64,000 nt of DNA, taken from positions 350,206-414,205 of the forward strand of contig CAVSDR010000002.1 in assembly GCA_963726745.1 (NCBI GenBank). The letters are read 5' to 3'. The position numbers were made by a program, and so were the translations under genes. Of this stretch, positions 1,117 through 63,500 are shown piece by piece. A model generated the notes under the pieces. That model was given only the letters and a program-made list of their open reading frames with translations. It made no database searches and had not been told where the DNA came from. Numbering within the stretch: the stretch's first letter is position 1; each line of letters starts with the position of its first letter. The stretch is from an uncultured Verrucomicrobiae bacterium (GTDB taxonomy: Bacteria; Verrucomicrobiota; Verrucomicrobiia; Chthoniobacterales; UBA10450).

Positions 1117-1839
1117 ATGTCCCCCGTCGTCATCGACATTCGCGAAATCACGAAGCACTACGTGATGGGCGAGGAAACCGTGCATGCCCTGCGCGGGGTG
1201 AGCCTGCAGATCCGGCAGAATGAATACCTCGCGATCATGGGGCCGAGCGGCAGCGGCAAGTCGACGCTCATGAACATGCTCGGCTGCCTCGACACGCCGA
1301 GCAGCGGACATTATTTCTTCAACGGCAAAGACGTTTCCGCGATGGATGGCGACGATCTCGCGGAGATCCGGAATAAGGAGATCGGGTTCGTCTTCCAGAC
1401 GTTTAATCTCCTCCCCCGCTCCACCAGCCTGCGGAACGTCGAGCTGCCTTTGATCTACGCCGGGATCGACCCTGCGACCCGCGAGGAGCGCGCCGCCGAG
1501 GCCTTGCGCAGCGTGGGCCTGGGCGACCGCCTGGGACACAAGCCTAACGAGTTATCCGGCGGGCAGCGCCAGCGGGTCGCGATCGCGCGCGCCCTGGTGA
1601 ACAATCCGTCGATTATTTTAGCCGACGAGCCGACGGGAAATCTCGATTCGAAGACCGGCGAGGAAATCATGGCCTTGCTCGAGGCGCTCTATCAGCGCGG
1701 CAATACCATCATCCTCGTGACCCACGAGCCGGATATCGCCCGCCACGCGCGCCGCGCGGTTCACCTGCGCGATGGCGTGATTGAAAGCGACGAGTCGAGC
1801 GAACTCGCGACCGCGGAGGCGATCACTTTCAGCGCGTGA
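1117..1839 (+). CDS. ABC transporter ATP-binding protein (MacB/LolD-like)
   Basis: Walker [15 protein letters not shown] signature, [12 protein letters not shown]-loop VTHE. Confidence 0.95.
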
Positions 1840-3086
1840 AGCGGTTTCTCTACGAGCTGAGCGAGAGCTGGAAGATCGCGCTCGCGCAAATGGAGGCGAA
1901 CAAGACGCGCTCCATGCTCACCGCGCTCGGCGTGATCATCGGGATCGTCGCGGTCACGCTCATGGGCACGGCCATTACCGGAATCCAGAGCGGCTTCGAC
2001 AAGAGCATGGCCATCCTCGGCGATGACGTGCTCTACGTGAGCCAGTTTCCCTGGGCGCGGGTGAATGATTGGTGGAACTACCGCGACCGGCGCGAGATCA
2101 AAACGGAGTATGCGGAAACGCTCAACCGCTTAATCGCGGCGACGCCCAACAGCAATCTCCTGCTCGCGGTGCCGACGTCGAATGTGGTCCGCACGGTCAA
2201 AGCCGGCGACAGCCAGGTTAGCAGCATTTTCATTCAAGGAACCACCGCGGAGTATCCGCTCATCTCCACGGTGGACTTCGACGAGGGCCGCTTCTTTAAC
2301 GACGCCGAAACGCGCGGCGCAGCCAATGTCTGCCTGCTCGGTTACGACGTCGCCGATGCGCTTTTCCCCGGCGCCAGCCCGATCGACAAGGCTGTGCTGA
2401 TAAACGGACAGCAACTCAAAGTCATCGGCGTGGGCGCGCGGCAGGGATCGTTTCTCGGGCTCTTCAGTCTCGACTCGATCGTGATCGTGCCGCTGCCGAC
2501 GTTCCGGAAATATTTCAGCTCCAAGAGCGAGTCGGACGTGCGGGTGAAGGTGAAGGATAAAACCAAGCTCGAAGAAGCGAAGGATGAGCTGACTGGCCTG
2601 ATGCGGCGGGTGCGCGCGCTGCCGCCGGAGAAGAAAAACGATTTCAACATCAACGAGCAGCAGGCCTTTAAGAGCACGCTCGATCCGGTGAAGAACTCGA
2701 TCGCGATTGCCGGCCTTTTCATTACCGGGCTTTCACTTTTTGTCGGCGCGATCGGGATCATGAACATCACTTTCGTGAGCGTGAAGGAACGCACGAAAGA
2801 GATCGGCACACGCAAAGCGCTGGGCGCGCGGCGGCGCACGATTCTCCTGCAATTCCTGATCGAGTCGACTGCGCTTTGCCTGGCCGGCGGGCTCATCGGC
2901 CTGGCTTTTGCCTACCTGATGTCGGTCGGGATCGGACGCGCCTTCCCCTCCTTCCCGGTGCAGTTTTCCATGGCTCTCGTGCTCGTGAGCATGCTCGTCT
3001 CGGTCCTCACCGGCCTCATCTCCGGCTTCGCTCCCGCCTGGTCCGCCTCCCGCCTCGATCCCGTGACGGCGCTGCGTTATGAGTGA
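1836..3086 (+). CDS. ABC transporter permease (MacB/FtsX-like)
   Basis: N-terminal TM, large periplasmic loop, [24 protein letters not shown]-terminal LDPV.ALRYE; start overlaps upstream stop. Confidence 0.93.
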
Positions 3087-3206
3087 GCGCGGATTAACCA
3101 CCGCGGGCAGGGAGAACACCGGGGTTCCGGAGGGAATCAATCGAACCACGGAAGTGATGATTGATGCGGCCTTGGAGGTCCATCGCGCTCTCAGCTAATT
3201 ATTTCA

Positions 3207-59963: not shown

Positions 59964-60509
59964 GTGGGCGACGCGGCCGTAGCCGGAGGGAAACCGGAGC
60001 ACAATCAAAGCGAAGCAGCCAGCGTGCTGCTTAATCAGATCTATGCCGAGCTGCGTCAGATCGCGCGGGCGAAGATGGCCCATGAACGGCCTGGGCACAC
60101 GCTGCAGGCGACCGCGCTGGTGCACGAGGCGTGGTTGCAACTGGGCGATCAGCGCTTTGCGAATCGGGCCCACTTTTTCGCCGCGGCGGCGGAAGCGATG
60201 CGGCGGATTCTGGTCGACAGCGCGCGCCGCCGGATGACCGCGCGCCGCGGTGGTGGAGTGCCGCGCGTCCCGGCGGAGTCAGTCGATATTATCGCCCCGG
60301 TAAAGGACGATGAACTGCTGGCGATTCACGAAACGCTGGATGATTTCGCCGCGCATGACCCGCGCAAGGCCGAGTTGGTGAAACTGCGTTATTTCGCCGG
60401 CCTCACGATCGAGGAAGCGGCGGAAGTGCTGGGTGTTTCCGCGCCGACGGCAAAGCGCGACTGGACCTACGCGCGCGCCTGGCTCTTCCGCGCGATCAAG
60501 CGCGACTAA
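59964..60509 (+). CDS. ECF sigma factor (TIGR02999-like, kinase-associated)
   Basis: YAELR..A, HTLQATALVHEAWL, HFF.AAA.AMRRILVD.AR, T.KRDW..ARAWL. Confidence 0.92.
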   Translation: MGDAAVAGGKPEHNQSEAASVLLNQIYAELRQIARAKMAHERPGHTLQATALVHEAWLQLGDQRFANRAHFFAAAAEAMRRILVDSARRRMTARRGGGVPRVPAESVDIIAPVKDDELLAIHETLDDFAAHDPRKAELVKLRYFAGLTIEEAAEVLGVSAPTAKRDWTYARAWLFRAIKRD

Positions 60510-60512
60510 CGA

Positions 60513-63500
60513 ATGGAAGAAGCGGCCGACCCCGAGTGGATCTTCGGCGCAGCGCTGCCCCTTTCGCCCGGGGAAAGAACAGCCTTTCTCGAGAAAGCCT
60601 GCCGCGGAGATGCCGCGATGCTCGCGGAGGTGCGCGCGTTGCTGACCGCTTCCGAGTCCGCCGGCGAGTTCATGCACGAGGTAAATTTCCCGGGACGTCC
60701 GCAGCCGCACGCCGAAGCGCCGGGCGAACGCATCGGACGCTACAAACTCCTGCAGGAAATCGGCGAAGGCGGCTTCGGGACCGTGTGGATGGCGGAGCAG
60801 CTCGAGCCGGTCTCGCGCCGGGTGGCGTTGAAGATCATCAAGCTGGGGATGGATACGCGCGAAGTGATCGCGCGTTTCGAGAGCGAACGGCAGGCGCTCG
60901 CGATGATGGAACATCCGAACATCGCGCGGGTCTTCGACGCCGGCGCGACGCCGATCGGCCGGCCCTATTTCGTGATGGAGCTGGTCCGCGGAATTCCAAT
61001 CACGGAATACTGCGACGAAGCCGGGCTGGGCACACGCGAGCGGCTCGCGCTTTTCGGCGACGTCTGCGCGGCGATCAATCACGCGCACCAGAAGGGCGTG
61101 ATCCACCGCGACATCAAGCCGTCGAACGTCATGATCACGCTGCACGGCGAGCAGCCGGTGGTGAAGGTGATCGACTTCGGCATCGCCAAGGCGACGGAAG
61201 GCAAGCTGACCGAGCGGACGCTCTTCACGCGCTTCGAGCAATTCATCGGCACCCCGGTTTACATGAGCCCGGAACAGGCCAGCTGGAGCGGGCTGGATAT
61301 CGACACGCGCAGCGACATCTACTCGTTAGGCATTTTGCTCTACGAACTCCTGACCGGGAAACCGCCCTTCGACGCGCAGACCATGGCCGCGGCCGGCCCG
61401 GAGGAAGTGCGGCGGATGATCCGCGAAGTCGAGCCGGCCCGGCCCTCCACGCGCCTGCGCACGACCACGGAGGAAGAGCGCATCCGGCTGGCTCGCGGCC
61501 GGCAGATCGCACCCTCGAAAGTGAGCCACCTGGTCGAGCCGGATCTGGATTGGATCGTGATGAAAGCGATCGACAAGGATCGCGCGCGACGTTACGCGAC
61601 CGCGAATGAGTTCGCGCAGGACATCCGGCGTTTTCTGCTCGATGAGCCGGTCCATGCACGCCCGCCCACGGCCGCCTATCAACTCCGCAAGTTTGCCCGC
61701 CGCCACAAGGCCGCCTTTCGCGTCGCGGCCGGGATCGCAGCGATCCTCGTCGTCGCAACGCTCGTGAGCACAGGCGAGGCGTTCCGCGCGCTTGAACAAA
61801 AACGCCAGGCCGAGAAACAGCGCGCGCGCGCCGACCGCGAGACGGAGCGCGCCCAACAGGATCTGTATTACTCGCAAATGCACCTGGCCCAGCAATCGTG
61901 GCGCGAGCACCGCGGCTTGAAGCAAATGCGCGCGCTGCTCGCGCGTTGGCGACCGGCTCCGGGCGCGCCCGATCGACGCGGCTGGGAGTGGTCCTATCTC
62001 CGGGCGTTGCCGCAGCAAAATGTGCGCACCTTCACGCCCGCCGGCGCGGAGCAAGGTTCGGCCACGGTGGCGTGGCACATCGCCAGCGGGCGGCTCGCAG
62101 AAGGGGCCGCGAATGGGGTGATCCGCATCTGGGATGTCGCTCGCGCGACCTCCATCCTCGCCGTGCGCGCACCCGCGCCGGAGTTGACGTATTGCGGTCG
62201 TCGCTGGGTGGCGTGGCATCCGGACGGCAGTGCCTTCGCCGCCGCCGGGACGTGACGGCAGCGTGCGCGTTTGGGAGGTCGCCTCGGGAAAGGAAACGCG
62301 CCTCCTGCGCGCTGGAGAATCGCCGCTGAGCGCGGTCGCCTACAGCGCCGATGGTTCGCGGCTCGCTGCCTGGGGAACAGACGGCGAGATCACGATTTGG
62401 GACGCGACGAGTGATCAACCGAGCGCGCACCTCATTCATCCCGGCGAGGTCACCACCGGTGCCTGGAGTCCAGACGACCGGCAGTTCGCGCTCGGCCACA
62501 TCGACGGGTCGATCACCTTTTCCGGCGTGCAGACCGGCTCGCCTTACGTCGCGATCTTGCGCGCGCATCCGGACGAAATCTACGGCCTCGCCTGGAGCCC
62601 GGATAGCACCCGCCTCGCATCCACGAGCGGAAACGATTTCTTCGTCACGGTCTGGGAGGTGGCCACCAAATCGCGCGTGCTCGGGCCGCTGCGCCATTCC
62701 CACGGCATCACTGCTCTGGCCTGGGAACCAGACGGCCGACGCCTGGCCACGGGCAGCGTGGATGAAACGATCAAGATCTGGGACGCCTCCACCGGCCAGG
62801 AGGAAGTCACCCTGCGCGGTCTTTCGGATCGCGTGATCTCGCTCGCGTGGGGACCGGATGGGCGACTGGCCTCGGGCAGCGCCGATGGGAATGTGCGCAT
62901 CTGGGATTCGCTGCATGACCAGGAGTGGAAGGTGCTGACGGCGGAAGGCGGACGCGCGACCGCGGTGGCTTGGAGCCCGGACGGGCAGCTCGCCTCCGCG
63001 AGCGACGACGGAAACATTCGACTTTGGAATGCGGCCACCGGACACGAGAGCTTCGTGATCGCGGCGCACGATCGCACCCGGATGATTCCGCAGTTTGGCC
63101 TGATCCGCGCGCTCGCCTGGAGTCCGGATGGAAGCCGGATCGCCTCCGCGGGACTGGATGGCGCGGCAAAAATCTGGGACGTCGCCACCCGCCGCGAAGT
63201 CTTCGCCTTTCCCGCGGACCGTGGCGCTGTCTGGTGCCTTGCCTGGAGCCCGGATGGTCACTCCCTCGCCATCGGCACGCAGGATGGGAGCATCCAGATT
63301 GCTGCCAAACTGGACGCCGCTCCCGCCGTTCTCATCTTTTCGGCACATCCTGCCAGCCACCGGGACGAACCTTGGCGCGACGGCGTGCGGGCCCTTTCCT
63401 GGAGTCCTCAAGGCGATCGCCTGGCCAGCGGCGGCTTCGATAAGCTGGCGAAAATCTGGGATCCGCTTCGCGGCACGGAACTGGTGCGATGCCAGGGTCA

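Follow-up and report, generated by a model that had tools for sequence, protein, structure and literature searches.

What causes one short DNA word to recur through protein-coding genes, spelled with codons that are rare in the same genome? The question is raised by a 64,000-nucleotide stretch (the window; G000:C2:350206-414205) from an uncultured Verrucomicrobiae bacterium of the order Chthoniobacterales, whose genome, G000, comprises 3.41 Mb in 7 contigs and is 94.7% complete. Genes were called with a dicodon model self-trained on this genome (3275 gene pieces, 88% coding). The word, termed M1, is TCGTTAGG/CCTAACGA and was tested as the 7-mer TCGTTAG, as the 8-mer TCGTTAGG and in longer forms. 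We observed that the pressure behind M1 acts on DNA, and that the most enriched k-mers after M1 belong to a separate, degenerate word of 18 bases, M2, with the consensus RAAWTAGCCRGCRASWTS; M2 sites are those scoring above 15 bits unless stated otherwise.

Frames of M1 in the window

The window holds 28 M1 8-mers, compared to ~1 expected under an order-3 Markov model. The first-pass annotation, made from the letters of the window, had reported 22 copies and the reading frame of each. All 22 coordinates carry TCGTTAGG on the + or - strand, and the frame named agrees with the dicodon gene calls at 21 of them; the remaining copy, at 12723, lies in a frameshifted gene, and in the frame supported by the orthologs of that gene it encodes Ser-Leu-Gly. 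Weak gene models underlie two of the frame assignments, at 38382 and at 56411, the latter at the very start of its model. Six further copies consist of four TAA stop codons, one ambiguous case (17528) and one intergenic copy (52825). Within the window, TCG-TTA is used in 8 of 14 Ser-Leu-Gly (SLG) peptides and CCT-AAC in 6 of 9 Pro-Asn-Asp/Glu peptides. The claim that the motif is written in all reading frames is right for the four open frames; the other two hold stops and are used as stop codons, and frame use is very unequal. The copies are as follows.

1543..1550, -, Pro-Asn-Glu frame of an ABC ATPase gene (word match, gene calls)
3243..3250, +, Ser-Leu-Gly
5977..5984, -, Pro-Asn-Glu
7070..7077, +, Leu-Thr in a - strand gene
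9850..9857, +, Ser-Leu-Gly
11681..11688, -, TAA stop codon (further copy)
12723..12730, +, Ser-Leu-Gly in a frameshifted gene (ortholog frame)
14548..14555, +, Ser-Leu-Gly
16052..16059, -, TAA stop codon (further copy)
17528..17535, -, stop or Leu-Thr, weak gene model (further copy)
21477..21484, -, Ser-Leu-Gly in a - strand gene
21867..21874, +, Pro-Asn-Asp in a - strand gene
25819..25826, -, TAA stop codon (further copy)
26225..26232, +, Val-Arg (GTT-AGG)
27632..27639, +, Ser-Leu-Gly
32067..32074, -, Pro-Asn-Glu
32243..32250, -, Leu-Thr on + / TAG stop of a - strand gene
38382..38389, +, Leu-Thr, weak gene model
40153..40160, -, Pro-Asn-Glu
45232..45239, -, Ser-Leu-Gly in a - strand gene
45573..45580, -, Ser-Leu-Gly in a - strand gene
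46424..46431, +, Leu-Thr in a - strand gene
48987..48994, +, Leu-Thr in a - strand gene
52825..52832, +, intergenic (further copy)
54943..54950, -, Leu-Thr
56411..56418, -, Pro-Asn-Asp at the start of a DUF72 gene model
59659..59666, -, TAA stop codon (further copy)
61323..61330, +, Ser-Leu-Gly

Codon choice and peptide content

Genome-wide, the 8-mer occurs 1514 times, compared to 54 expected (order-3 Markov), and is accompanied by 2025 copies of TCGTTAG and 1312 of TCGTTAGGC. The 1514 copies divide into 541 Ser-Leu-Gly, 296 Leu-Thr, 254 Pro-Asn-Glu/Asp and 95 Val-Arg frames, 187 gene edges and 141 intergenic sites, and M1 spells 178 of 826 TAA and 119 of 1022 TAG gene ends. The codons that M1 imposes are indeed rare in this genome: TTA and CTA make up 2.8% and 1.2% of Leu, AGG 1.0% of Arg and CCT 6.7% of Pro codons. 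TCG-TTA encodes 547 of the 834 SLG peptides (7.1 expected), CCT-AAC is found in 189 of 254 Pro-Asn-Glu (PNE; 11.3 expected) and 70 of 159 Pro-Asn-Asp peptides (PND; 7.1 expected), CTA-ACG in 322 of 1397 Leu-Thr pairs before A (6.4 expected), and GTT-AGG in 95 of 927 Val-Arg pairs after TC (0.7 expected). Codon use in these peptides is therefore not that of the genome background. Control peptides were at or below background, with TTA in 15/441 GLS and 4/1042 ALG and CCT in 10/172 PNG; TTA is raised in SLA (104/767) and LLG (123/1044) because these peptides spell variants of M1.

Five synonymous shuffles of the coding sequence left 21-34 M1 8-mers of the 1198 present in the real genes. The word is flanked by W at -5, A at -2 and C at -1 and followed by GC, a pattern that is alike in the four frames and in intergenic DNA. 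Flank mismatches are tolerated, whereas variants with one mismatch in the GTTAG core do not rise above background. The constancy of the flanks across frames, taken together with the codon and shuffle tests, places the pressure on DNA. The encoded peptides are affected as well: SLG, PNE and PND outnumber their reverses GLS, ENP and DNP by 834/441, 254/144 and 159/72 (1.9-, 1.8- and 2.2-fold), indicating that M1 also changes amino acids. SLG and PNE are not raised over their reverses in the word-poor relative G003 (60/50 and 9/11), and Leu-Thr-x and x-Val-Arg peptides are mostly not raised in G000, LTN being the sole exception. Proteins tolerate the words in their least costly frames. The proposal that synonymous choice bends toward the DNA word stands, but its qualifier, that this happens independently of the protein, goes too far, as the frames are unequally used and residues change too. 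The codon effect is itself a known consequence of uptake-like words.

M1 in orthologs and across the family

Among 60 genomes searched, the closest to G000 has at most ~78% DNA identity over long stretches. Site conservation was measured in 360-400 kb samples of the relatives G033, G028 and G003, leaving out 22, 16 and 42 unaligned M1 sites, respectively. The word-rich G033 and G028 retain M1 at 25/63 and 34/63 aligned sites, respectively. Among sites with an unchanged peptide, 56 of 68 in these two genomes still have the 7-mer, compared to 24-29% for random 7-mers, so that conservation exceeds the synonymous background. In G003, M1 is kept at 7/83 aligned sites and at 7/27 sites with unchanged peptide (32% in the control), and 7 of the 12 aligned M1 sites of G003 are shared with G000, as if G003 were losing an ancestral M1. 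Alignment gaps at M1 sites (3/62, 2/64 and 3/83) do not exceed the background of 2.4-3.4%, which indicates that M1 arose by point substitution and not by insertion. The suggestion of DNA-level selection or molecular drive is borne out as far as a DNA-level pressure goes; from the codon and ortholog data, selection and drive cannot be told apart.

The M1 9-mer is present in 138-2435 copies in all 36 family genomes and in 1-35 copies in 24 genomes of 15 other families. Family genomes are kin and not independent, and these and the following distribution counts are descriptive rather than statistical tests. A wider draw of 150 family genomes extended the range to 13 to 4336 copies: 128 genomes had at least twice the count of the reversed-word control, 32 had more than 1000 copies and 22 were near the control. 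The densest of 151 genomes, G105 (genus g44), has 4336 9-mers in 3.2 Mb. In 249 genomes of the phylum from outside the family, the 10-mer occurs 0-5 times per genome, and in two other families the 9-mer lies mainly in clustered same-strand runs without genome-wide spread. By these counts, M1 is confined to one family. Six unpublished genomes (G001, G008, G030, G035, G070 and G182) were used in the tallies only.

A public soil read run covered 19% of the words with low-depth contigs; among the differences listed (40 of 342) none fell inside a listed site, a sample too sparse to speak of conservation. The 16S gene of G000 contains no M1 7-mer in its 1560 bases, where only ~1 was expected. The rRNA operon at G000:C6:176845-179206 appears unlinked, the 16S rRNA, tRNA-Ala and tRNA-Ile genes being followed by protein genes and not by 23S.

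A second word, M2

G000 contains 3344 M2 sites above 15 bits, of which 62 lie in the window. Only 12 of the 3344 score on both strands at one place, and M2 is accordingly not palindromic. The following M2 features were recorded in the window, the seven single sites being examples that score above 22 bits.

4272..62391, both strands, M2, 62 dispersed sites above 15 bits, consensus RAAWTAGCCRGCRASWTS
6631..6648, +, M2 site, 23.5 bits
9486..9503, -, M2 site, 24.4 bits
18038..18055, -, M2 site, 27.0 bits
32025..32042, +, M2 site, 24.4 bits
52297..52314, +, M2 site, 26.3 bits
55948..55965, +, M2 site, 23.7 bits
58982..58999, -, M2 site, 23.8 bits

Synonymous shuffling reduced the 2809 coding sites of M2 to 76-92. 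The M2 matrix is alike in all frames and in intergenic DNA, although it was built from all sites and the comparison is not fully independent. With the cut-off lowered to 13 bits, 2.0% of codons fall within M2, and M1 and M2 together hold 53% of the TTA, 47% of the ATA and 28% of the CTA codons of G000. De novo searches of 140-400 kb samples of G003, G015, G018, G028, G033 and G034 yielded no third strong word.

The density of M2 is ~100 sites per 100 kb in G000, 10.8 in G015 and 2.5-5.3 in samples of five relatives. Among 151 family genomes, M2 was found in three: a skeleton pattern gave 2752 matches over 263 for the control in G000, 1965/208 in G063 and 509/266 in G015, with at most 1.5-fold in the other 148, and a stricter pattern gave 1046, 201 and 73, then at most 33 per genome. 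G063, which belongs to another genus and has M1 at background, carries a dialect of M2, WYAGNCRRCRCGMTC, with 375 sites and 5 control matches in 231 kb. The dialect, the occurrence of M2 in a second genus and the rejection of the P0002 cassette described below all come from this one unpublished genome, sampled over 231 kb of 2.3 Mb and at its pilin loci. Aligned M2 sites of G000 are shared with G063 at 7/73 positions, and with M2-negative relatives at 1/100, 3/89 and 1/91. Amino-acid identity is 62-69% at M2 sites compared to 72-75% overall. The small number of shared sites and the lower identity at M2 sites indicate that most M2 sites arose independently in the different lineages, in many cases together with an amino-acid change.

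Spacing and genomic distribution of the two words

Pair correlations, measured against local density, revealed a short-range deficit for each word: 0.29-0.68 for M1-M1 pairs below 300 bases and 0.46-0.85 for M2-M2 pairs below 400 bases. M1-M2 pairs are near random (0.88-1.14), and four control words showed no consistent short-range deficit. The close M2 pairs that do occur are mostly overlaps. The M1 deficit is seen in every orientation (same, 105/177; opposite, 53/89 and 40/89). That each word avoids itself but not the other points to two separate readers, and we infer that the benefit conferred by each word reaches saturation within a few hundred bases of duplex DNA and that one word cannot stand in for the other. 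The overall coefficient of variation of M1 gaps in G000 is 1.15, and word distances up to 3 kb show no clear period. Neither word follows replication polarity, with 475 and 478 copies of M1 and 777 and 755 of M2 on the G-rich and C-rich strands.

Both words are scarce in DNA that, judged from its composition, appears to be acquired. Genes with a third-position GC content (GC3) of 0.70-0.75 hold 0.29 M1 and 0.70 M2 per kb, those with GC3 0.80-0.85 hold 0.56 and 1.03. A low-GC polysaccharide-synthesis island at G000:C7:56000-97000 is poor in M1 and M2, with no M1 8-mer in 35 kb.

Search for the reader

G000 encodes ComEC (an 849-codon frame), DprA and, by motif, 18 prepilin-type proteins; a nineteenth match is not a pilin. 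G000 also has a Verru_Chthon-like cassette (g1404-1408) and the pilins g599, g1289 and g1861. Two paralogous three-gene minor-pilin cassettes, at G000:C3:584404-586933 and C6:623563-626130, each end in a PilX/DUF7305 beta-solenoid protein, and homologs of these cassettes occur in 24 of the 36 family genomes and in 2 of the 24 from other families. The second cassette lies between genes named from sequence as prs and rplY, 2.6 kb from dprA. The predicted model of P0001, from one of these cassettes (pLDDT, the per-residue confidence score, 80), has Thermus ComZ as its top fold match (E 3.7e-7), and a sequence search of the PDB with P0001 gave nothing below E 0.03.

The candidates tried did not follow the words. 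The two PilX/DUF7305 cassettes had the look of a pair of receptors, yet orthologs of the P0001 cassette are present in 16/36 family genomes and absent from the syntenic position in G033, G024, G013, G031 and G014, four of which are M1-rich. The P0002 cassette has orthologs in G015, G018, G002, G003 and G005, of which G018 and G002 are M2-negative, and was not found in the M2-rich G063. The pilins g844, g2360 and g1346 occur in word-negative genomes or are missing from word-positive ones (5 genomes each), and when the pilin sets of G063 and G095 were compared, no gene private to G000 and G063 survived cross-checks. An orphan CcrM-like methylase (G000:C3:981203-982039), the only one that a motif scan turned up, was rejected for M1, as it is conserved at 67-71% identity in 5/5 genomes tested, two of them M1-poor; the other methylase hits in G000 are, as read from sequence, type I HsdM-like pieces and an RsmD-like protein. 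No IntI was found in the 94.7%-complete assembly of G000, which has only XerC and XerD, and no IntI scored above cut-off in the word-rich G024; it did so in 29/61 genomes, from families with and without M1. An origin of the words as dif arms was dropped when the pattern used found no dif-like site, and an identity with Chi or KOPS (FtsK-orienting polar sequences) was dropped on the lack of replication polarity of M1 and M2.

The one family hit of ComEA type that was examined is a nuclease-helix-hairpin-helix (HhH) fusion, L048:15321-16211 in G003, with an apparent staphylococcal-nuclease-like domain and a ComEA-like HhH, domains read from sequence; its G000 ortholog, G000:C4:17233-17871, is without the HhH part. 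In many family genomes this gene lies near the region orthologous to the window.

Other features of the window

Conserved genes at 11689-12860 and 19361-21383 of the window are broken by frameshifts, one of them matching whole ortholog ORFs in two frames, and a UvrD/PcrA gene of these regions is in two pieces; the frameshifts are probably long-read indel errors. The window further contains a Pup-ligase family protein (16071-17054, -; PF03136, E 9e-80), found here in a Verrucomicrobium, and a tRNA-Arg(ACG) gene (18716-18790). An isolated piece with an NPPF motif (34350-34730) is near-identical to part of a type I HsdM-like gene at G000:C6:493-1455 and, alone, gave no NCBIfam match.

Weighing the explanations

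We put the probability at about one half that molecular drive has built up M1 and M2 as tags resembling uptake sequences. In favour of this reading are the codon and shuffle tests, the lack of strand polarity, the gap counts at M1 sites, the raised SLG, PNE and PND peptides, the thinning of both words in foreign-looking DNA, the self-avoidance of each word, and the presence of ComEC, DprA and prepilin-type genes, including a pilin with ComZ as top fold match. Under such a model, DNA fragments from kin would be taken up preferentially through a type IV pilus/ComEC route when they bear a word, and would then recombine, so that word-creating alleles would spread even at the cost of TTA, CTA, AGG or ATA codons or of an altered residue. 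A short fragment would need no more than one word, which would account for the self-avoidance of each word. The M1 reader would be old and family-wide, weakened or lost in some genera, and the M2 reader would have arisen separately in a few lineages and drifted into dialects. Several observations weigh against this model. ComEC is present in 58/61 genomes, with or without the words, and does not discriminate between them; no canonical ComEA was detected, TIGR00426 scoring above cut-off in 0/61 genomes with no match in G000; and the presence of none of five pilins tracks M1 or M2, although changed specificity in a conserved protein may still be compatible with such presence tests. The ComZ match of P0001 has a TM-score of only 0.21, and DNA uptake by Thermus is described as not sequence-specific (PMC6561018). 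Self-avoidance is weak in 760 kb of the word-rich G033 and G028 (143 pairs below 300 bases, 155 expected), terminator-like inverted pairs are lacking (3 opposite-strand M1 pairs below 60 bases among 1514 copies), core mismatches are not enriched, and M2 is patchy across genera, where the dialects of known uptake sequences are reported to follow phylogeny (bioRxiv 10.1101/2025.06.16.659825).

Some of the same observations would suit intracellular sites under direct selection, resembling HIP1 of cyanobacteria. Nucleoid organisation, repair or strand marking might depend on two DNA-binding or DNA-modifying proteins whose sites must recur every few hundred bases, and in large soil populations weak selection could beat codon preference. 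Such sites are a tentative explanation that we think will probably prove wrong. Conservation of M1 above the synonymous background, the saturating short-range spacing and the lack of ComEA and of terminator pairs are in their favour, and HIP1, too, shows enrichment and conservation whatever the frame, a pattern that has been read as selection for chromosome structure (PMC5861425). The range of M1 from 13 to 4336 copies within the family and the absence of M2 from 148/151 genomes fit poorly with an indispensable structural function, and the M1 deficit holds whatever the orientation of the pair, where a mark on one strand would predict that orientation matters. Methylases divide the evidence: type IIG enzymes have targets with a strict core and a penultimate A, the shape of the 7-base TCGTTAG, but a degenerate word of 18 bases does not look like the target of a methylase, and the orphan methylase is conserved in M1-poor genomes too. 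In a biased exchange of another kind, DNA with a word would be favoured by a phage, gene-transfer agent, conjugative system, cytoplasmic protector or recombinase, acting after pilus uptake or in its place. Such an exchange would share all drive-type signatures of the uptake model; it would suit the finding that no pilin tracks the words, and mobility of the reader would account for an M2 found in two genera at mostly independent sites. We regard it as improbable, since no gene for such a route was identified, in the absence of a systematic search, and self-avoidance over ~300 bases seems short for packaged or conjugated DNA.

Integrons provide a further possible source of M1. The attC/attI core has the consensus GTTRRRY, and nine attC-like sites of 123-127 bases in G000:C6:737968-744893 (- strand), an array without an integrase (CALIN-like, that is, resembling a cluster of attC sites lacking an integron integrase), end in CTCGTTAG-RY, as do several sites beside intI in G028. 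M1 could on these grounds be the crossover end of the attC/attI sites of the family, spread or selected by an integrase or attC-binding factor. The match is real, but IntI does not track M1: it is missing from G000, falls below cut-off in G024 and is distributed independently of the word. Four of the nine G000 ends finish in AT, which M1 avoids, M1 sites carry no excess of indels, and the clustered runs of the 9-mer in two other families are not accompanied by genome-wide spread. The nine sites are a negligible share of the 2025 M1 7-mers, and the link leaves M2 unexplained; we consider this origin very unlikely. An effect at the level of protein or codon pairs (a peptide motif, translational pausing or dicodon bias) would be in keeping with the unequal frame use of M1. 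It is refuted by the collapse of both words on synonymous shuffling and by the occurrence of the same DNA consensus in four frames, on both strands and in intergenic DNA.

Returning to uptake-like tags, a fuller scenario may be sketched for these soil Chthoniobacterales (the family of Ca. Udaeobacter), one that we offer as speculation with the odds against it. They would practise sequence-specific DNA exchange with interchangeable readers; the family-wide M1 would perhaps have been first tuned to integron-cassette ends, and the M2 reader would have moved between genera or been switched on repeatedly, rewriting ~2% of host codons into a species-specific dialect. If true, this would be the third lineage with uptake sequences and the first with two independent tags per genome, and a mobile 'mate-recognition' gene would have reshaped a proteome. 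A family in which M1 ranges from background to 1.4 per kb and M2 is restricted to a few lineages is a natural experiment, in which gains, losses and dialect shifts of a genome-wide drive can be placed on a phylogeny and comparative analysis can lead to the reader gene. Regardless of what reads them, the words skew codon statistics and tripeptide content, and as a species-level tag they could aid metagenome binning and the spotting of recently acquired DNA.

Comparison with known systems

No description of either word was found in the literature searched, a search that did not extend to supplements (such as methylome motif tables possibly listing TCGTTAG) and most subscription journals. Both M1 strings are present, twice, in an engineering paper (PMC4340930), and an M2 string once in each of two unrelated papers.

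Chi and the KOPS/AIMS (architecture-imparting sequence) octamers resemble M1 and M2 in being abundant, short and non-palindromic, but are described as strand-biased (PMC5861425), which M1 and M2 are not. HIP1 (GCGATCGC) is similarly hyper-abundant and conserved in all frames and between genes, and its function is debated between chromosome structure and DNA uptake (PMC5861425; bioRxiv 10.64898/2026.06.24.733823). It differs in being a palindrome recognised by the methylases DmtA and DmtC, M1 and M2 being non-palindromic with no matching methylase found. A periodicity of 10-90 kb is a further trait of HIP1; the distances examined for M1 and M2 reach up to 3 kb. The attC-like sites of the family share their CTCGTTAG-RY end with M1; unlike them, M1 is unpaired, lies in frame inside genes without an inverse core and is present without IntI. 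ComZ of Thermus thermophilus (PDB 6QVI), a pilus-tip DNA receptor, is the top predicted fold match of one G000 PilX/DUF7305 pilin, but neither PilX/DUF7305 cassette tracks M1 or M2.

The closest likeness is to the DNA uptake sequences (DUS) of Neisseriaceae (GCCGTCTGAA) and the uptake signal sequences (USS) of Pasteurellaceae (AAGTGCGGT, ACAAGCGGT), the two host-associated families for which uptake sequences are proven (PMC2817400). These are, like M1 and M2, non-palindromic, present at 0.4-1 per kb and found in both orientations (PMC2817400, PMC7811141). Origin by point changes (for our words, gaps were counted at M1 only), uneven frames, scarcity in new DNA and lineage dialects are also shared, and the doubling of DUS/USS-encoded tripeptides (PMC2817400) is matched by SLG, PNE and PND in G000. 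In Haemophilus influenzae, two USS within 100 bases are reported to add no uptake (PMC7811141), which the saturating spacing of our words fits. Known uptake sequences are also spaced more evenly than at random and are served by a sequence-specific receptor (ComP; ComN predicted). The frames in which uptake sequences are most often read tend to be those with preferred codons (PMC2817400), whereas the commonest M1 frame needs the rare TTA, and M1 and M2 differ further in their unrelated sequences and phylum, the lack of terminator pairs, the co-occurrence of two words in one genome and the patchiness of M2. Five of the DUS/USS features compared are shared and terminator pairs are not, and we do not file the words as uptake sequences. 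What appears to be new, as read from these genomes, is the presence of two independent words in one genome, one of them patchy and divided into dialects.

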